Below, piece by piece: positions 12,011-29,912 of a stretch of 36,091 bases of DNA. The position numbers and the translations under genes were made by a program. The notes under the pieces are model-generated. The model was not told where the DNA came from. It searched no databases and was given only the letters and a program-made list of their open reading frames with translations. Source of the stretch: a virus. Location: IMG/VR virus record IMGVR_UViG_3300045988_081375, positions 1 through 36,091 of that record. One strand, written 5' to 3'. How positions within the stretch are numbered: position 1 is the stretch's first letter; the number at the start of each line of letters is the position of its first letter.

Positions 12011-13162
12011 TTACGTTGCTTGTCGCAATTTTGCGTTCAAATGTTCGTTAAATTTATCAATATTTTTTGCCTTGTAAGTCTTGTCTAAGTGCGTGTAAAT
12101 TTTGAGGGTTGTGGATATATCCTTGTGGCCTGCCTGCTCTTTTGCTGTCATAATATCCACCCCTGCAAGATACATCAAGGTTATAAATGTATGACGTAAG
12201 CAGTGGGCTGTGAAAGGTTCAATCACGAACGGAACACCACCGGGCTGAAAACGGCTTGTCGGTTTGTCGGATAATGTGTTATCAAAATTGCCGTGCTCAT
12301 AGTTCAGGACGGACATATAACTTTCCCACATTCTGCGCCAGGACGTGTTGCTGTGCATCTTGTCATTTGCAGTCCGGCATACGAGAAAGCCGTCATGCTC
12401 CGCACCTTTCAGATAGTCAACGAGCACATCGGGAATATAGACAATTCGTTTTGCGCTTTCGGACTTGCCGTAGTTTTTGACTTTAGCCTGATTGCCTGAG
12501 AACTCTACAAATCGTGCTACCTTGATAGTTTTGCCGCTAAGGTCAATATCATTCCATTGAAGCGGTATAAGCTCGCTCTTTCGTAACCCGGCATACATCA
12601 TGATCATTGCAGCAGTCTGGGCTCTGTGGGGCGTAGTTCTTATCCACTCCTGCTCTTCATCGGTCAGAGCACGGCGCTCCTCCGCAGGCTTTACCTTTGC
12701 AGGAAGTTTTACATTCCGGAAAACGTTATAGTCGGTGGCTCTGTTCTCAATAGCCAGGTCAAGGACACTTACCGATATTTCATACACCGCTTTAATTGTT
12801 CTCTTGGAATAGTCCTCCTGAGCCATATCTATGAGAATATCACGCAAATCCGATGAGGACAGTTTTGCTATCGGAAGATTATACAACGGTTCAAGGTGCT
12901 TGTAGTAGCTCTGCGTATTCTTATACCACTGTTCCGAAACGTCGGGTTGCTTGTATTTTATCCACTTTTTGCCCCAGTAGTCGAAGGTTTCACGGCAAGC
13001 ATCAAGATCTATACCTTTACCAAGCTTGATTTTAAGCGAGTTGGACTTTTCTTCGACTTCTTTCTTTGTGTTTCCGTAAACAACACGGTATTTCTGCTTG
13101 CCGTTGTTATCGGTACCGATATAAACCGATTGCTGATAACGGCCGTCCGCACGTTTTTTCAT
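12011..13162 (-). CDS. int: tyrosine site-specific integrase
   Basis: 383 aa. The C-terminal catalytic region AHCLRHTFITLMYLAGVDIMTAKEQAGHKDISTTLKIYTHL holds the R/H-x-x-R/H/Y signature. RBS aggagg. Adjacent to the attP-like region. Confidence 0.95.
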   Translation of the reverse strand: MKKRADGRYQQSVYIGTDNNGKQKYRVVYGNTKKEVEEKSNSLKIKLGKGIDLDACRETFDYWGKKWIKYKQPDVSEQWYKNTQSYYKHLEPLYNLPIAKLSSSDLRDILIDMAQEDYSKRTIKAVYEISVSVLDLAIENRATDYNVFRNVKLPAKVKPAEERRALTDEEQEWIRTTPHRAQTAAMIMMYAGLRKSELIPLQWNDIDLSGKTIKVARFVEFSGNQAKVKNYGKSESAKRIVYIPDVLVDYLKGAEHDGFLVCRTANDKMHSNTSWRRMWESYMSVLNYEHGNFDNTLSDKPTSRFQPGGVPFVIEPFTAHCLRHTFITLMYLAGVDIMTAKEQAGHKDISTTLKIYTHLDKTYKAKNIDKFNEHLNAKLRQAT

Positions 13163-13210: not shown

Positions 13211-13738
13211 TCATATATTTGCGTTTTTACCGTAGAATATCTTGCCGCTTTCTAAGTTCTTTTTGTAATAGCAGGATTTAGAACGGATTATATCCGGGTG
13301 CAAGCACTTTTTAGCATCTGAACACTTCAAATATAATCCGCAACACCCAAAATGATCTGTTGGCTCAAATATTCTGACATTCTCATCAGTAATAAGTTCA
13401 GCAGCTTTTACAGCTTCGTTTTGTGTGTGGAATGTACATTGTATGAAATTCTGAGGGCTTTTCAGCAATTTTGTACCTGCAGGAGATATTTCAAGCGTAT
13501 CATAAACTCTTTTATTGCAAGAAATTACCGTGAATTTTGTATTCACTTTGAAGAAAAGACATTTTTCAAAATAGATCGAATACCCGGTAAGTTTGTCTTT
13601 GCTTTTGTTTTCCTGTATGCTGAAAAGCCCGTTTGAACATTTCCATTTTGCTGAAACTGTGACTATTATGTTTTCTAAAGTAGTTTTACAATCTAAATCT
13701 TCGGGTTCATTTTCAAATAATGCTACCTGCTCTATCAT
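13211..13738 (-). CDS. hypothetical protein with C-terminal Cys cluster
   Basis: 175 aa. Its ATGA start-stop overlap with the upstream exonuclease gene indicates translational coupling. C-terminus FGCCGLYLKCSDAKKCLHPDIIRSKSCYYKKNLESGKIFYG. AT-rich. Confidence 0.7.
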   Translation of the reverse strand: MIEQVALFENEPEDLDCKTTLENIIVTVSAKWKCSNGLFSIQENKSKDKLTGYSIYFEKCLFFKVNTKFTVISCNKRVYDTLEISPAGTKLLKSPQNFIQCTFHTQNEAVKAAELITDENVRIFEPTDHFGCCGLYLKCSDAKKCLHPDIIRSKSCYYKKNLESGKIFYGKNANI

Positions 13739-14820
13739 AACTGCACATCCTTTTCTTTTAGTATCATAATCGGATAGCCTTTGCTTCTGAGTTCAATTGC
13801 TTTCTTCGCCTTAGTGCCATAAGTTCCGCAAGCCCAGCTGTCAGAACCTTTTTCGCCTATAAGAAGAATGTCGGTTTTTCTTGTAACGTTACTAACTACC
13901 GTAGCACCTATTTCAGACAATCTTTCTTGTACTTCTTGCTTACTCCCATAATCAAAATCACCGGTCAGACAGATAGACTTGTTGCTAAGCTCTATATCAA
14001 CGGCTCCTATTTCTGCATTAAGCGGATTGATTTGTGCTTTAAAAAATTCGAGGAGATAATCGAGCTCGGATTGCTCTATTATTCCGTCCTCAATCACTTT
14101 CCAGATTGCGTTATTTATAATGTCGTATGGGTAATTACCTGCGAGCTGTTCGTTATTGTTCATCCATTCTTCAAGTCTTAACAGTTCTTCTTGTGTTAGA
14201 ATGTCATCGCAGGTTATGCCTATCAATATGCCGTGCAAAGTTTGTAACCCTTTTGTAATAGGATTCAGCACTCTTTGTTTCGGCGGCTTTATTTCAAGTA
14301 CAAGAGCGGAATGATTTTTCAATGCTGTCATTAAGCTGTGAGTATGGTAGCAGTCTGCAAGAGCTCTGTGATGTATACCGCTATCTTTTATTCCGAGCTG
14401 TATTATCATATCTTCGAGCTTGTGGCTGACATCGGGGTATTCTTGCTTGCATGCAGCCAAAGTATCGTATGTATCATTTTTAAAATCAAGCCCATAAGCA
14501 ACGCATTTTTTACTGATGAAATTAGCGTCAAATGCAATGTTATGTCCTACGACCGTATCATTATCAACAAATCGCAGAAAATCAGATAGGGTATCGTCAA
14601 GCTCTTTTGCATCTGCCAACATATCATCTGTTATGCCGGTAATCTGAGAAATAGTTTTTGACAACGGCTTGCTCGCTTTTATAAGCTGAGAAAATTCAGC
14701 AACGATTTTGTTATCACGAACACGCAAAGCACCGATTTCGATGATATTATCATTGTCCGGCGATAAGCCTGTTGTTTCGATGTCTACTATCGAGCAGTCG
14801 TTCAGTTCCTGTATATTCAT
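13735..14820 (-). CDS. DnaQ-like DEDDh 3'-5' exonuclease fused to a C-terminal BRCT domain
   Basis: Exo I VDIETTGL, Exo II GHNIAFDANFI, Exo III HRALADCYHTHSL. The C-terminus ICLTGDFDYGSKQEVQERLSEIGATVVSNVTRKTDILLIGEKGS...KAKKAIELRSKGYPIMILKE resembles the LigA BRCT domain. Confidence 0.85.
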   Translation of the reverse strand: MNIQELNDCSIVDIETTGLSPDNDNIIEIGALRVRDNKIVAEFSQLIKASKPLSKTISQITGITDDMLADAKELDDTLSDFLRFVDNDTVVGHNIAFDANFISKKCVAYGLDFKNDTYDTLAACKQEYPDVSHKLEDMIIQLGIKDSGIHHRALADCYHTHSLMTALKNHSALVLEIKPPKQRVLNPITKGLQTLHGILIGITCDDILTQEELLRLEEWMNNNEQLAGNYPYDIINNAIWKVIEDGIIEQSELDYLLEFFKAQINPLNAEIGAVDIELSNKSICLTGDFDYGSKQEVQERLSEIGATVVSNVTRKTDILLIGEKGSDSWACGTYGTKAKKAIELRSKGYPIMILKEKDVQL

Positions 14821-14844: not shown

Positions 14845-15603
14845 TTAATAACAACGACTGCTTACTGCAAATATGTAATCCTTCGAATAAAAAAAGAAAG
14901 GTTTTATCGGTACTTTAGTCTGCTCGTAGTTCCAACAAGCGTCAAACATTTTGTTTTCGATATCGAGTAATGAATCTACGTTAATACCTTTGCGTTGCTG
15001 TTCAGAATGTGACATCAATTGTATTTTGTCAATATCAGTACCACTAAGATACTGCCATATTTCGTATGACAAACTGGATATTCTATTTTGCACCACAACG
15101 GTAGACACATTGTACATATTACTTAGTTTTTCCGATAAATCAAAAATTGGCATTGAGTGCTCGTCAAATGTTTTACTTTCATTTCTAATTATCGGAAGTA
15201 TTTCTTTGTATGGCATAAGAAATTCAGCTGCACCCTCATTTGCAAGCCATTCAATATAACTATTTTGATTAGGTCTAGTATTTCCAAAACAATTCAAAGT
15301 AGTTCCAGGCTCATCAACAGTCAAAATGTGTGTTAGTTCATGAAATCCATGATAGTTTTGTTCGACAAACGACTTGTTTTCGTTTAATAGTATAACATGA
15401 TTCTCATCTCTGTTTTTAGCAATTCTAACAATTCCTCGCAAATCATACGTCGAAAAAGGAAGTGTTTTTATCTTAACATTCTTAAATTTCTTACATAATT
15501 CAAAAATATCAAGAGGATAATCTGAACTAGAAATATTAAACTGGACTCTTTTTTCTGCGATTAACTTATATAGTTTTTCCTTAGTGTAGTAACTAATAAT
15601 TAT
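14845..15603 (-). CDS. ImmA/IrrE-family metalloprotease (start codon uncertain)
   Basis: HEXXH motif in HGFHELTHIL. The only ATG/GTG/TTG start is TTG at 15441. However, the frame is open up to 15609 and encodes ImmA-like N-terminal sequence (PLDIFELCKKFKNVKIKTLPFSTYDLRG). Candidate ATA/ATT starts lie at 15603/15600 just after AGGAGG. Confidence 0.75.
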   Translation of the reverse strand: MIISYYTKEKLYKLIAEKRVQFNISSSDYPLDIFELCKKFKNVKIKTLPFSTYDLRGIVRIAKNRDENHVILLNENKSFVEQNYHGFHELTHILTVDEPGTTLNCFGNTRPNQNSYIEWLANEGAAEFLMPYKEILPIIRNESKTFDEHSMPIFDLSEKLSNMYNVSTVVVQNRISSLSYEIWQYLSGTDIDKIQLMSHSEQQRKGINVDSLLDIENKMFDACWNYEQTKVPIKPFFFYSKDYIFAVSSRCY

Positions 15604-15935
15604 TCCTCCTTATTGCCCTTATCTTTAAGTTTCAAAATCATTGCAATTGCCATTTCAATATCATTAGGGTCTATTCCATTGTCTTGTGCTTTTTTTGCGA
15701 AACTAAAATAAATATTATTCACTTCATTGTTTAGATTACTATCGTCACCTATCAAATCACTAACTGAGACGCACAAAAAAGTTGCAATTTCTTTTAAGTA
15801 TTTATTGTATGATCTGCTTTTTCCGTTTTTCCATGCTGAATAAGTACTTTTATCTAACCCTAGATAATCGGTGAGTTCTTTTTGTGTTTTATTTTTTTTA
15901 ATAAGCAATTCTGAAATTTTATCTATTATCTCCAT
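15600..15935 (-). CDS. XRE-family HTH repressor (CI-like)
   Basis: ATG at 15935 after the RBS aaggaggg. HTH KTQKELTDYLGLDKSTYSAWKNGKS. Divergent from the Cro-like gene and upstream of ImmA. Confidence 0.85.
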   Translation of the reverse strand: MEIIDKISELLIKKNKTQKELTDYLGLDKSTYSAWKNGKSRSYNKYLKEIATFLCVSVSDLIGDDSNLNNEVNNIYFSFAKKAQDNGIDPNDIEMAIAMILKLKDKGNKEE

Positions 15936-15968
15936 ATTTTCACCCTCCTTTTTGTTGGGATTTAACAA

Positions 15969-16193
15969 AGTTGAAAAAATAACAACTTAAAGGGTTGACA
16001 ATTGGAATAATATCAACTATAATATGCGTATACGGTTGATGAAATTCCAACTTTTCTTTAGTTCAAGTTTAGCTGACAGACTAAAGGAAAGTTTACAATT
16101 TTTAAACTTTGTTGATTTAATAGTAACAGTTTTATCAACTTGTGTCAATAGTATCAAACGAAATTTGTTGATTTGCTGAAAGGAGGTAGGAAT
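15969..16193. promoter_or_regulatory. lysis-lysogeny switch region with repeated ATCAAC/GTTGAT half-sites
   Basis: Hexamers at 16012, 16035, 16111, 16134 and 16167, plus the variant ATCAAA at 16153. An 11-bp direct repeat TTTGTTGATTT lies at 16108-16118 and 16164-16174. The inverted repeat AAGTTG..CAACTT is at 15968-15988. Confidence 0.6.
15995..16023 (+). promoter_or_regulatory. perfect consensus sigma-70 promoter for the early rightward operon
   Basis: TTGACA at 15995-16000, a 17-nt spacer, and TATAAT at 16018-16023. The -10 is bracketed by ATCAAC and GTTGAT half-sites. Confidence 0.75.
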
Positions 16194-16424: not shown

Positions 16425-17189
16425 ATGAACAATTTACAGATTTTCAACAACGCCCAGTTTGGCGAGATAAGGACAATTGATGAGAACGGCACAGTGCTGT
16501 TCTGTGGCTCGGACATTGCAAAGGCACTCGGGTATTCAAACACAAAAGACGCACTTGCAAGACATTGTAAAGAAGATGGGGTAGTGTTTCACGACCTCAT
16601 CGACAACATGGGCAGAGAACAGCATGCAAAATTTATCAACGAGGGCAATGTCTACCGCCTGATAACGCACAGCAAGCTTCCTGCGGCTGAACAGTTTGAG
16701 AGCTGGGTGTTTGACGAGGTGTTGCCAACAATACGCAGAAACGGTGCATATATGACAGACGATACACTTGAGTATGCTCTGACGTCTCCGGACTTTCTGA
16801 TACAGCTTGCAACAAAGCTCAAAGAAGAAAAAGCAAAGCGTATAGAGTTAGAAGCACAGGTTGAGCAGGACAAGCCTAAAGTGTTATTTGCAAGAGCAGT
16901 CGAAACGGCACACACATCCATACTGATAGGCGACCTTGCGAAAATCCTTAAGCAAAACGGCGTTCAGACAGGACAGAAAAGGTTATTCGAGCAGTTAAGG
17001 CAGGACGGTTATCTGATAAAGGGCGGCAATTCGCACAATATGCCCACACAGAGAGCAATGGAAATGGGATTGTTTGAAGTCAAGGAAAGCACGGTGAACA
17101 ATCCGGACGGTTCGATAAGAATAAATCGTACAACAAAGGTAACCGGAAAAGGTCAGACATATTTTATAAACAAATATATGGCGGTGTAA
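16425..17189 (+). CDS. antirepressor (Bro-N domain plus KilAC/ANT C-terminal domain)
   Basis: N-terminus LQIFNNAQFGEIRTIDENGTVLFCGSDIAKALGY...ESWVFDEVLPTIRRNGAY. C-terminus ...GDLAKILKQNG...QDGYLIK...PTQRAMEMGLFEVK. Confidence 0.9.
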   Translation: MNNLQIFNNAQFGEIRTIDENGTVLFCGSDIAKALGYSNTKDALARHCKEDGVVFHDLIDNMGREQHAKFINEGNVYRLITHSKLPAAEQFESWVFDEVLPTIRRNGAYMTDDTLEYALTSPDFLIQLATKLKEEKAKRIELEAQVEQDKPKVLFARAVETAHTSILIGDLAKILKQNGVQTGQKRLFEQLRQDGYLIKGGNSHNMPTQRAMEMGLFEVKESTVNNPDGSIRINRTTKVTGKGQTYFINKYMAV

Positions 17190-27907: not shown

Positions 27908-28309
27908 ATGGGTAATAGCTTGAGCTTTTTTATGCCGATGATACCGCCTACGGTAACGGCACAGGAACACAAAGTAACGGTTTCTCACGGCAAGCCGATA
28001 TTCTATGATCCGCCCGAAGTCAGATCGGCGAAGGCTAAACTGACAGCGTACCTTTCTCAGCATAAACCCGACAAGCCGTATAAAAAGGGCGTAAGGCTGA
28101 CGACAAAGTGGCTGTTCCCGAAAGAACGGCACAAAGACGGAGAGTATCGTATAACGAAGCCAGATACCGACAATCTTCAGAAAATGCTGAAGGACTGCAT
28201 GACTGTTTGCGGGTTCTGGACTGACGATGCGCTTGTCGCAAGCGAGATATGTGAAAAGTTCTGGGCGGCAAATCCCGGAATATATATCAAGGTCGAGGTG
28301 CTGAAATGA
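27908..28309 (+). CDS. rusA: RusA-family Holliday junction resolvase
   Basis: PPTVTAQEHK ... ITKPDTDNLQKMLKDCMT ... FWTDDALV, the characteristic RusA Asp motifs. Confidence 0.85.
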   Translation: MGNSLSFFMPMIPPTVTAQEHKVTVSHGKPIFYDPPEVRSAKAKLTAYLSQHKPDKPYKKGVRLTTKWLFPKERHKDGEYRITKPDTDNLQKMLKDCMTVCGFWTDDALVASEICEKFWAANPGIYIKVEVLK

Positions 28310-28503
28310 CGATAGACGAAGTTCAGCAGGCTATTGTAAGCGGTCAGACCGTAAGGCATACACACGGAGGAATAACCGCCGAATACACAATAAGCGGTGT
28401 TATATCCCGTTACAGCAAGATAAGAGGCTGGTATTATGTGCTTGAGCTTAAAGACAAGAAAGCAGACAGCTTGTCTGTTGTGAATATGGAGGAGGTACAA
28501 TGA
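28306..28503 (+). CDS. hypothetical protein
   Basis: 65 aa with 4-nt overlaps on both sides. No recognisable motif. Confidence 0.5.
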   Translation: MTIDEVQQAIVSGQTVRHTHGGITAEYTISGVISRYSKIRGWYYVLELKDKKADSLSVVNMEEVQ

Positions 28504-28877
28504 CCAAACAAGAACTTAAAGATTACCGCTACACCTGCAAGTGTATCAAGCAGCTTGAATCAGAGTTGAACGATGCGGCAGTAACCGACAGCACGCAGGG
28601 TTCGCAGAGCGAGTACCCCTATGTCAAACATAGCGTCACGATTTCCGGCGTTCCGGATAACGATACACACCTTGCCAAGAAAAGAAGACTGTCCGAACTT
28701 AAAGCACAGAAAGCAGAAGTAGAACGCTTCATCGGCAATATTGCGGACAATCAGACAAGGGATATGTTCTACTACAGGTACATACAAGGCTATACAATGG
28801 TGAGAACTGCGGTAGAAATCGGTGGAGATAACACACCCGACAGTGTGAGAATGCGAATAAATCGGTATTTGCGTTAA
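28500..28877 (+). CDS. putative late transcriptional activator (sigma region-4-like, ArpU/RinA/DUF1492-type)
   Basis: 125 aa and the last gene before the packaging module. The N-terminal ELKDYRY...I..LE.EL and C-terminal FYYRYIQGYTMVRTAVEIG..TPDSVRMRINRYL pattern is typical of such regulators. Confidence 0.5.
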   Translation: MTKQELKDYRYTCKCIKQLESELNDAAVTDSTQGSQSEYPYVKHSVTISGVPDNDTHLAKKRRLSELKAQKAEVERFIGNIADNQTRDMFYYRYIQGYTMVRTAVEIGGDNTPDSVRMRINRYLR

Positions 28878-28940
28878 TGTTGTTCGTTTTGTTCGTTTTA
28901 AGGGTGCTATAATTTAAAATGACAAAATATAAATAAATTG

Positions 28941-28969
28941 TTGACACCTCCAAAATAATCGGTTATAAT
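28941..28969 (+). promoter_or_regulatory. perfect consensus sigma-70 promoter of the second moron
   Basis: TTGACA at 28941-28946, an exact 17-nt spacer, and TATAAT at 28964-28969. Confidence 0.75.
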
Positions 28970-29000
28970 GTAGAAAACTGGTGTTTTTTTGGAGGTGTCA

Positions 29001-29876
29001 ATGATGAGTGAACAAAATGTAAAACAATCAAAAAGTGATTCTGAAGTCCAAAATAATAAAAAATGTTTTATAATCATGCCTATATCTACACCAGAGGGCT
29101 ATACAGAGAATCATTTTAAGCAAGTTTATGAGACGATAATTGCGCCAGCCGTAGTAAAAGCTGGTTATGAGCCTTATAGAGTGGATGATGATCGTATTTG
29201 TGATAGCATAATCGATAAAATATTGAGAAATCTTGTCGAATGCGAAATGGCAGTATGTGATTTAAGCTCAAGAAATCCTAATGTCATGTATGAATTAGGC
29301 ATAAGACAGGCTTACGGCAAAAAAGTTGTTTTAATACAAGATGAGAAATCTCAACCTATATTTGATGTCTCAGCAATCAATACTGTGTTCTATAATAGTA
29401 GACGCATCTATGAAGACGTTATTGCGTCCCAAAACAATATTTCAGAAGCAATAATATCAACAGCTAAAGAAGATAGTATTTCATTAATGTCGATTGCGAA
29501 TATGCGTCCTGCTACTATTGAAGCGCAGAGTGAAAATGATGATAAGCAGATTTCAGAAAAGTTGTTACTTTCAATTTTAAGCACAGTAAGAAGATTGGAA
29601 CAATCACAAGTGATGCAAAGTAGAAAATTGAATGTTCCTATTACGTCTAACGATTACATACTTGCTAGATATTTCGATTTGCAAAATGATATTGATAAAG
29701 CAATTAGCCGTCAAAAAGTTGATAAAGATGAGCTAGATTACTATCGTAGAAAAATATCATTTTTTATTAGTGAACTGCTACATGATTCAAATATGTTGTC
29801 TGATGAACAAAAAGATATTTTAGCTTCAGCTATCAATATTAGAAATAAATTACAAACTATGATTGATGAAATATAA
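29001..29876 (+). CDS. moron protein: Rossmann-like deoxyribosyltransferase/TIR-like N-domain plus helical C-domain (function unknown)
   Basis: ATG at 29001 after GGAGG. N-domain pattern CFIIMPIS...VYETIIAPAVVKAGYEPYRVDDD...CEMAVCDLSSRNPNVMYELGIRQAYGKKVVLIQDE. About one third G+C in hand-counted 60-nt lines, against about 45 percent in flanking genes. Confidence 0.8.
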   Translation: MMSEQNVKQSKSDSEVQNNKKCFIIMPISTPEGYTENHFKQVYETIIAPAVVKAGYEPYRVDDDRICDSIIDKILRNLVECEMAVCDLSSRNPNVMYELGIRQAYGKKVVLIQDEKSQPIFDVSAINTVFYNSRRIYEDVIASQNNISEAIISTAKEDSISLMSIANMRPATIEAQSENDDKQISEKLLLSILSTVRRLEQSQVMQSRKLNVPITSNDYILARYFDLQNDIDKAISRQKVDKDELDYYRRKISFFISELLHDSNMLSDEQKDILASAINIRNKLQTMIDEI

Positions 29877-29883
29877 AATATAA

Positions 29884-29912
29884 CCGCTCCCTAACCGGAG
29901 CGGCTATTTTTT
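29884..29912 (+). terminator. rho-independent terminator of the second moron
   Basis: Stem ccgctcc/ggagcgg with loop ctaacc, followed by ctaTTTTTT. Confidence 0.7.

Follow-up and report, generated by a model that had tools for sequence, protein, structure and literature searches.

What is a lone AT-rich gene doing between the late regulator and terminase genes of a temperate phage? The question is raised by the IMG/VR virus record IMGVR_UViG_3300045988_081375. The window, by which we mean the whole stretch of DNA analyzed, covers its 36,091 nucleotides. A block at positions 28941-29912 encodes a 291-residue protein whose N-terminal domain resembles nucleoside 2-deoxyribosyltransferases (NDT) and TIR domains. 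Comparison with related phages identifies the block as a moron inserted at a variable hotspot, as it is absent or replaced in relatives, deviates in G+C content and carries its own promoter. We propose that this cargo is a phage-activated N-glycosidase of lysogen defense, which would abort infection, in a hotspot of temperate phages of [Eubacterium] siraeum. In our judgment this full proposal stands slightly better than even. That the gene is a defense gene at all is likely. The features of the block are as follows.

28941-28969, plus strand: perfect sigma-70-type promoter TTGACA-17-TATAAT, matching at 12 of 12 positions in a promoter scan
28941-29001, plus strand: inverted repeat with 18-nt arms, 94% complementary
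28943-29878, plus strand: insert of 936 bp, the cargo and its leader; relatives with an empty site (L018, L020) have AACC at this point
28991-28995, plus strand: Shine-Dalgarno (SD) sequence GGAGG, 5 nt ahead of the ATG at 29001
29001-29876, plus strand: open reading frame (ORF) of the NDT/TIR-like protein, 291 residues, coordinates including the stop codon TAA at 29874-29876
29058-29495, plus strand: N-terminal catalytic-type domain, residues 20-165, Rossmann-like β-α fold, with a predicted local distance difference test score (pLDDT) mostly above 90
29292-29294, plus strand: codon GAA of Glu98 in YELG, the predicted catalytic residue, which falls on the Glu of 'GVGYELG' in rat Rcl/DNPH1
29526-29873, plus strand: hypervariable all-helical C-terminal module, residues 176-291, a putative sensor or oligomerization part
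29884-29912, plus strand: intrinsic terminator, CCGCTCC-loop-GGAGCGG with a T-run, stem at 29884-29903 with 6 G-C pairs

A preliminary description of this DNA had named the promoter, ribosome-binding site (RBS), 291-residue ORF and terminator, and each is present at the position it gave. Its claim that the block is AT-rich also holds. The G+C content is 0.29-0.35 over 28850-29900, against 0.44-0.50 in both flanks. The block was further said to interrupt the junction between the late regulator and terS, and we found sister phages in which the site is empty and others in which it holds a different cargo. The junction comparison places the first two bases of the promoter (TT) in the phage backbone, outside the insert. 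The insert contains no other ORF. A perfect TTGACA-N16-18-TATAAT promoter occurs three times in the 36-kb window (at 15995, 28941 and 34017) and not once in 100 dinucleotide-preserving shuffles. A 100%-identical protein, carried under the NCBI name [Eubacterium] siraeum, is encoded on 456 contigs. Together with a ratio of nonsynonymous to synonymous substitution rates (dN/dS) of 0.05-0.10 in the N-domain among phage variants, this indicates that the cargo gene is real.

The variability of the site was characterized by searching IMG/VR with the 125-residue regulator encoded just 5' of the block. The search gave 28 loci, in which the regulator, terS, terL and cargo genes were then located. The gap from regulator to terS was resolved in 21 loci, which comprise the empty state and five cargo types. 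In the empty sites (L018 and L020) the gap measures 136 bp and includes the same terminator. The NDT-like gene occupies the slot in six loci, at 80-97% identity. The commonest alternative, found in seven, is a DUF4062 protein (PF13271, 5.7e-18; 357-376 residues). Three loci carry a PDC-S42 protein, and two a DUF6731/PDC-M67A protein together with a membrane protein; PDC-S42 and PDC-M67A are defense candidates in PADLOC. A ThsB-like TIR protein (PF08937, 4e-15) paired with a SLATT_1/DUF4231 protein is found in one locus, on the opposite strand. All inserts have a G+C content of 31-36%.

Parts of the cassette are shared by these cargos. The terminator is also present in the empty-site relatives and is thus a backbone element rather than part of the cargo; most other cargos are followed by it as well. 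The promoter, leader and SD sequence (TTGACACCTCC...TATAAT...GGAGGTG) are common, nearly base for base, to the NDT-like, DUF6731 and PDC-S42 cargos. Their identity ahead of two unrelated cargos indicates that they belong to the slot and not to the NDT-like gene alone. The DUF4062 cargo (L015 4464-4492; also L026 and L033) has a different perfect TTGACA-17-TATAAT promoter and its own terminator. An exact IMG/VR search for the shared leader returned only slot contigs that were already known. The cassette is therefore less self-contained than the preliminary description stated: it is a separate insert, but it relies on a backbone terminator and on a promoter and leader common to other cargos. Judged from these alignments, the slot appears to act as an expression socket for exchangeable ORFs; recombination within the common leader and terminator is the presumed means of exchange. 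Another rearrangement of the same junction was seen in L040 (4000-5249). There, a Dam-like DNA methyltransferase-type ORF (275 residues) is fused to the initial 18 residues of the regulator, and a different, 141-residue regulator-like ORF comes next.

What kind of protein is the cargo? The AlphaFold2 model has a pLDDT of 72 with 21 aligned homologues and of 85.5 with 121. Its core contains strands at residues 21-25 (CFIIM), 57-59, 83-87, 110-114 (VLIQD) and 128-131, and helices at 38-53, 70-80, 93-104 (holding YELG) and 137-156. In a Foldseek search of the PDB the top 22 matches are NDT, MilB and DNPH1 structures (probability 1.00, E 5.5e-5 to 2e-3). The best is NDT 8pqq, with an E-value of 5.5e-5. 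The order of matches is NDT, MilB, DNPH1/Rcl, TIR-STING (2.4e-3) and BcmB. Across N-glycosidases of the NDT/DNPH1/MilB type, E-values range from 5.5e-5 to 1e-2, and the TM-score normalized to the target is 0.5-0.7. In BFVD we found one full-length relative, which carries the automatic name 'CMP/hydroxymethyl CMP hydrolase', and several viral NDT-like proteins. The model supports an N-domain of NDT/TIR-like fold at the superfamily level. It agrees with the preliminary description, which had predicted this fold, a strand at CFIIMP and an all-helical C-terminal part. In the Foldseek ranking the TIR-STING match lies lower than the leading NDT-type matches.

Sequence libraries place the protein less closely. 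PF05014 (NDT) scores 15.3 bits, with a gathering cut-off of 28.8 (E 0.023), and only over residues 68-118. Membership of the Pfam NDT family was rejected on this score, and the NDT assignment is retained only at the superfamily level. No Pfam TIR family was matched at E <= 10, and no ThsB_TIR model was matched. The PADLOC CBASS 'Effector TIR' model (PDLC00733) matches residues 38-136 at 1.9e-5. PHROG 3634 matches at 2.8e-31, and PHROGs 10872 and 26406 match as well; all three are of unknown function. Among 121 homologues, 39 match PF05014 at E < 0.01 (best 5e-5), and 11 match PF10137, the CAP12/Pycsar TIR family (best 1.2e-4). PDB sequence searches with the full-length protein gave coiled-coil noise from the C-terminal part and were discarded for searches with the N-domain only.

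The N-domain profile suggests where the active site may lie. Its segment 'malCDLssrnpnvlyeLGirqafdkpvvlv' aligns with 'VVVAEVTQPSLGVGYELGRAVALGKPILCL' of rat Rcl (E 0.013). The profile also aligns with BlsM, placing Glu98 on its 'EIG'. The YELG-type Glu is the catalytic nucleophile of DNPH1 and NDT enzymes. Corresponding residues cited as catalytic are E98 of LlNDT and E106 of the retron Ec86 effector (10.1101/2023.08.16.553469). The alignments with Rcl and BlsM thus put Glu98, the YELG glutamate that the preliminary description had put forward as a candidate catalytic residue, at the position of the DNPH1/NDT nucleophile. The residues invariant in all 121 homologues are E98, M26, P27, H38, I70, C86, D87, N94, L99, G100, R102, F121, D122 and Y131.

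The C-terminal part behaves differently. It is predicted to form four helices, at residues 178-207, 216-236, 242-261 and 268-290. Mean pairwise identity among the 121 homologues is 52% over residues 20-165, compared with 13% over residues 176-291. In P0053, identity to the window protein is 93% over the core but falls to 29% over the tail, which points to a swap of the tail module between close relatives. Conversely, the variant in L021 has a diverged core (dS 0.24) and an identical tail (dS 0), which argues for intragenic recombination. Among phage variants the dN/dS of the tail is 0.21-0.69, compared with the low values of the core. Positive selection across the gene is not proven by these values. 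Tail dN/dS is raised, with a maximum of 0.69, yet stays below 1, and fits relaxed or diversifying selection. A search with the tail only, aimed at fusions to other effectors, found only truncated copies of the same gene and close kin. The truncated copies (P0050, P0055-P0059 and P0267-P0271; 209, 196 and 88 residues) lack the first core strands or consist of the tail only. Such copies may reflect gene decay in some prophages, or else errors of assembly or gene calling.

The family is large and widespread. A profile search of representatives clustered at 50% identity gave 23,152 clusters at E <= 1e-3 and 823 at E <= 1e-30, and the proteins among the matches listed are mostly of 250-330 residues. 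Scanning one genome per species revealed more than 500 loci, in phyla including Bacillota, Bacteroidota, Pseudomonadota, Acidobacteriota, Planctomycetota and Chloroflexota. The family is also found in 59 phage records (Streptococcus, Staphylococcus, Klebsiella, Escherichia, Enterococcus and Dorea) and in 74 plasmid records. Our literature search found nothing on the family, on its PHROG numbers or on the locus tags SpyM3_0974 and PHIEF11_0065.

Gene neighborhoods were compared at 78 genomic loci from many phyla, with two neighbors per side called and clustered. No conserved partner gene was found in these loci, the largest neighbor cluster covering 4 of 78. Intergenic spacing at these loci has a median of about 150 bp on the upstream side and 117 bp on the downstream side. 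The 150 neighbor proteins fall into 119 Pfam families, led by terminases, integrases, CI repressors, YoeB and TIR_2; no cyclase gene is among them. PADLOC models match at least 12 of the 150 (bSEFIR, CARF, type I and IV restriction enzymes, DRT-SLATT, DolB, PbeA, ThsB and several PDC), a count that suggests a defense setting but was made without a control set. In annotated phages, homologues precede terS in Dorea phage DO134P1 and Enterococcus phiEf11. In S. pyogenes 315.2 the gene lies in the lysogeny module, co-oriented with the repressor and integrase, and in S. aureus SA13 it is antisense within the replication operon. A Klebsiella lambdoid phage has it in the nin-type region, and a Pantoea P2/186-like element between the CI repressor and integrase. 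These positions are typical of prophage-expressed genes, and none has a fixed partner.

A more distant relative was observed on a plasmid of Agrobacterium sp. MA01 (L134 3983-5326). This 447-residue protein, named 'TRAFs-binding domain-containing protein' by NCBI, has the same N-domain (hhalign probability 99.7, E 2e-25) with all motifs including YELG. Its C-terminal part is longer than that of the window protein and different from it. The gene adjoins a DUF4231/SLATT-type gene, a TIR protein gene, a QueC-like gene and a DNA lyase gene. The N-domain profile also has a weak PDB match to the N-terminus of ASK1/MAP3K5 (8qgy, E 0.17); a link between the bacterial N-domain and ASK-type kinases is a weak possibility. 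Our search of the literature on DUF4071 and TRAFs-binding domains found nothing on bacteria.

How could such a gene serve the phage that carries it? The argument for a defense effector, one of the two readings offered in the preliminary description, comes from genomic context: the alternative cargos of the slot (DUF4062, ThsB-TIR with SLATT, PDC-S42 and PDC-M67A) and the homologues in the lysogeny modules of other prophages. The design of the protein is a further guide. In two 2026 preprints, DUF4062 proteins are described as single-gene defense systems with a TIR-like NADase core and a diversified auxiliary region, which deplete NAD+ and abort infection (10.64898/2026.05.01.722283, 10.64898/2026.06.25.731849). 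In one of them, Swarozyc, a phage portal is reported to be the activator and NAD+ depletion to depend on a Glu (10.64898/2026.05.01.722283). Another, Evangelion, is from a plasmid of methicillin-resistant Staphylococcus aureus (10.64898/2026.06.25.731849). The window protein has a DUF4062-like design with a core nearer to NDT/DNPH1 and to the TIR domains of Cap12 and PycTIR, and on this basis we propose a phage-activated N-glycosidase that aborts infection.

We infer the following course, which covers lysogen expression, trigger, substrate and the role of the hairpin. Transcription in the lysogen would start from the consensus promoter of the cassette, and the protein would be kept inactive. 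On infection by another phage, the variable tail would detect some component of that phage, either directly or by way of altered oligomerization, and would then switch on the N-domain. The activated N-domain would cut the N-glycosidic bond of an essential nucleotide, leading to abortive infection. If the gene is indeed for defense, NAD+ is the favored substrate, with a chance we put just short of even. Adenine nucleotides or (deoxy)nucleoside monophosphates, (d)NMPs, are a distinctly smaller possibility, and what is left falls to something else. In the lytic phase of the prophage itself, read-through RNA would pair the -35 and spacer region with the RBS, and synthesis of new effector would be held down.

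The last step is suggested by the inverted repeat. The -35 hexamer and spacer of the promoter make up its left arm (28941-28958), and its right arm (28984-29001) comprises a U-run, the SD sequence and the first base of the ATG. RNA starting at 28920 is predicted to form an interrupted stem of 19 bp (-32.3 kcal/mol, z = -6.6), and none of 200 shuffles is as stable. RNA from the expected start site of the promoter itself (about 28976) lacks the left arm and is predicted to be unstructured near the SD sequence (-5.3 kcal/mol, z = +1.4). According to these predictions, the hairpin would form only in RNA started 5' of the cassette promoter. The core stem is present in all eight loci with the shared leader, which represent three cargo types. 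The SD sequence of the cargo may therefore be sequestered in backbone read-through transcripts during lytic growth, while the prophage transcript from the cassette promoter would remain translatable. In the literature searched we found no description of a socket whose promoter contains an anti-SD arm.

Several observations weigh against the proposal of a lysogen defense N-glycosidase. Its defense part is wholly an argument from association and homology. No Pfam or NCBIfam model reaches its curated cut-off for the 291-residue protein, and PADLOC matched no system or candidate beyond one weak TIR-effector match. Among solved structures, its closest matches are N-glycosidases of housekeeping or biosynthesis, none of them an NADase. 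Membership of DUF4062 itself is rejected. The window protein has no PF13271 match, and hhalign against the DUF4062 protein of the hotspot gave a probability of 0.1; the template was a single DUF4062 sequence, so very distant homology is possible. The count of PADLOC matches among the neighbors of homologues has no control set. Promoter and terminator scans at the Dorea, S. aureus and S. pyogenes phage homologues found no comparable consensus promoter, which indicates that this promoter is a trait of the slot in this phage group and not of the family. Finally, the PDC-S42 cassettes retain the hairpin though their ORF begins 30-100 nt 3' of the leader SD, and occlusion of the SD thus cannot be the sole role of the hairpin.

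Four alternatives were considered. In the first, the N-glycosidase would serve counter-defense, destroying immune signals (cyclic or ADP-ribose-derived nucleotides of CBASS, Pycsar, Thoeris or type III CRISPR) or disarming a host system in some other way, to the benefit of the phage. Its fold family does cleave nucleotides, and the gene is located just 5' of the late genes in the phage, where read-through would transcribe it too. However, the hairpin would occlude the RBS and cut translation when such a protein is needed, and the alternative cargos of the slot are of defense type, not anti-defense. Homologues occur both within lysogeny modules and outside phages, on chromosomes and plasmids of many phyla, and a simple signal-degrading enzyme needs no hypervariable tail of 115 residues. 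We consider counter-defense, the other reading of the preliminary description, unlikely, as it suits the context less well.

The gene may also act in defense in another manner, with the domain as a ThsB-like sensor or signal generator, or as a nucleotide-binding regulator, that works with an unlinked effector of the host. Precedents are close at hand in the ThsB-like TIR that occurs with a SLATT partner in the same slot, and in the 447-residue relative next to its DUF4231/SLATT-type gene on the Agrobacterium plasmid. The insert holds only one ORF, however, and the 78 loci show no conserved neighbor; a mobile single gene in need of an unlinked partner would seldom work after transfer. This arrangement is improbable in our view.

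We regard as equally improbable that the protein is an enzyme of phage nucleotide metabolism, such as an N-hydrolase of dNMPs, hydroxymethyl-dNMPs or CMP that supplies a precursor pool or DNA modification. This is what its best structure and sequence matches (DNPH1, MilB, BlsM, BcmB and NDT) and the name of the full-length BFVD relative would suggest, although that name is an automatic annotation. Against this, the gene is dispensable: near-identical phages lack it or carry unrelated genes in its place. It also has a foreign base composition and no linkage to other genes of nucleotide metabolism or modification, and its hypervariable tail is untypical of such enzymes.

Lysogenic conversion or addiction unrelated to phages, for example by a toxin against competitors or a stabilizing toxin, would suit an AT-rich moron with a strong promoter, and TIR/NDT-type domains occur as toxins too, but it is very improbable. 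A signal peptide, a secretion partner and an antitoxin ORF are all absent from the insert, other genomes show no conserved partner, and the remaining cargos of the slot point to phage defense.

The phage around the block is temperate. The window contains genes for an integrase (12011-13162, minus strand), an ImmA-type peptidase, a helix-turn-helix (HTH) repressor and an antirepressor, and the cargo gene is found on contigs of up to 332 kb. Upstream of the cassette are genes for RusA (27908-28309), a 65-residue ORF and the 125-residue protein (28500-28877). This last protein matches PHROG 36, 'transcriptional regulator', and has no Pfam match. Downstream are terS (PF03592), terL and an SPP1-type portal gene. 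One further element stands between the regulator gene and the cassette.

28882-28913, plus strand: backbone element with GTTCGTTTT twice in tandem (28882-28899) and an extended -10, TGcTATAAT (28905-28913), without a -35

This element directly follows the regulator gene and is kept in the filled and empty sites of all related loci. It appears to be part of the phage context and not of the cargo, and is a candidate late promoter. In the empty-site phages (L018 4380-4470) the terminator comes next after the extended -10, with terS behind it, all within about 40 nt. This arrangement resembles the λ PR'-tR' pair that is read through by an antiterminator, and by this analogy the 125-residue protein would be a Q-like or activator-type late regulator.

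Other sites in the window and in a related prophage were also recorded. The perfect promoter at 15995-16023 is located between the HTH repressor gene (15600-15968, minus strand) and the antirepressor gene (16425-17189, plus strand), and is probably the early lytic promoter. The one at 34017-34044 lies within a Mu-F-like ORF of 552 residues (32912-34570), and a patch of low G+C content (34201-34800, 0.385) is found just 3' of it. In a related prophage (L010 9930-11606), the Mu-F-like head protein has a C-terminal ADP-ribosyltransferase toxin domain (PF01129 ART, PF03496). A second accessory region, at 13211-14820 on the minus strand, is located between the integrase and ImmA peptidase genes and has a G+C content of 0.35-0.40. 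It encodes a 175-residue protein with no Pfam match and a 361-residue protein with RNase_T (DEDDh exonuclease) and BRCT domains, and is possibly a further defense or conversion gene in the lysogeny module.

If the cargo is indeed an N-glycosidase of lysogen defense, a function would be assigned to one of the larger phage and bacterial protein families that still lack a name. Its core would stand with TIR and DUF4062 as a third branch of the nucleotide-cleaving domains by which bacterial and animal immunity are connected. The hotspot would provide a ready list of candidate defense genes for gut Clostridia, in which there is, to our knowledge, almost no phage-defense genetics. The anti-SD hairpin of the shared leader could account for the ability of a temperate phage to keep an abortive-infection gene while sparing its own lytic cycle. 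A bolder version, which we consider doubtful, takes this protein as the prototype of a very large and still unnamed group of single-protein immune effectors, with a core distinct from TIR, DUF4062 and NDT proper and a tail that sets specificity, housed in a plug-and-play slot whose promoter-embedded anti-SD arm blocks translation of lytic read-through RNA.

In kind, a prophage-hotspot moron with a single-gene TIR/NDT-like effector and a variable sensor part is already known. The family itself is in none of the libraries searched, and we found no paper on it. In design only, the window protein is similar to the DUF4062 systems, as one gene encodes a conserved N-terminal TIR/NDT-like core with a catalytic-type Glu and a diversified C-terminal region. 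Both are also found on mobile elements, and a DUF4062 protein occupies the same slot in seven sister phages. The motifs differ, CFVIMP...CDLSSRNPNV-YELG-RQA in the window protein against VFVSSTFxDL in DUF4062, and the tail of the window protein is short (about 115 residues) and helical. Compared with the NDT, DNPH1 and MilB-BlsM-BcmB enzymes (PF05014, clan Nribosyltransf), the best fold matches, it has the same spacing from strand β3 to the (Y)ELG Glu as DNPH1. Unlike them, it has no Gly-rich phosphate loop after β1 but CF[VI]IMPIS instead, carries the additional variable tail and falls below the PF05014 cut-off. Its context is a moron in a hotspot, not a metabolic or antibiotic-biosynthesis operon.

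Among defense systems, the Cap12 effector of CBASS and PycTIR of Pycsar (PF10137; PDLC00733) provide the sole significant defense-library match of the window protein. PF10137 has an (F/Y)ELG-type Glu motif, as does the window protein. In contrast to Cap12 and PycTIR, the window protein lacks a cyclic-nucleotide sensor domain, its effector domain is N-terminal, and no CD-NTase or pyrimidine cyclase gene is adjacent. The NDT-like effector of retron Ec86/Eco1 (E106) is anti-phage and is reported in a preprint to deplete adenine and its derivatives (10.1101/2023.08.16.553469), which shows that domains of this type can act on adenine nucleotides. The two appear to share an NDT-like domain with a Glu at the catalytic position; the window gene has no partner reverse transcriptase or multicopy single-stranded DNA, and PDB searches detected no sequence match between them. 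Thoeris ThsB and the TIR-SLATT modules have a TIR-like fold as well, and such a pair is an alternative cargo of the slot. The window gene has no ThsA or SLATT partner and, as noted, no ThsB_TIR model match. The slot itself is comparable to the P2 and P4 prophage hotspots, in which cargos are present, absent or replaced at a fixed site with conserved core-gene flanks, and shares the low G+C content and own promoter of phage morons and hotspots (PMC9122126). It differs from the P2/P4 hotspots in its position between a late regulator and terS of a Clostridia siphovirus-type phage. In addition, three of its cargos have one promoter and leader in common, and most have one terminator, and the promoter doubles as an anti-SD arm.

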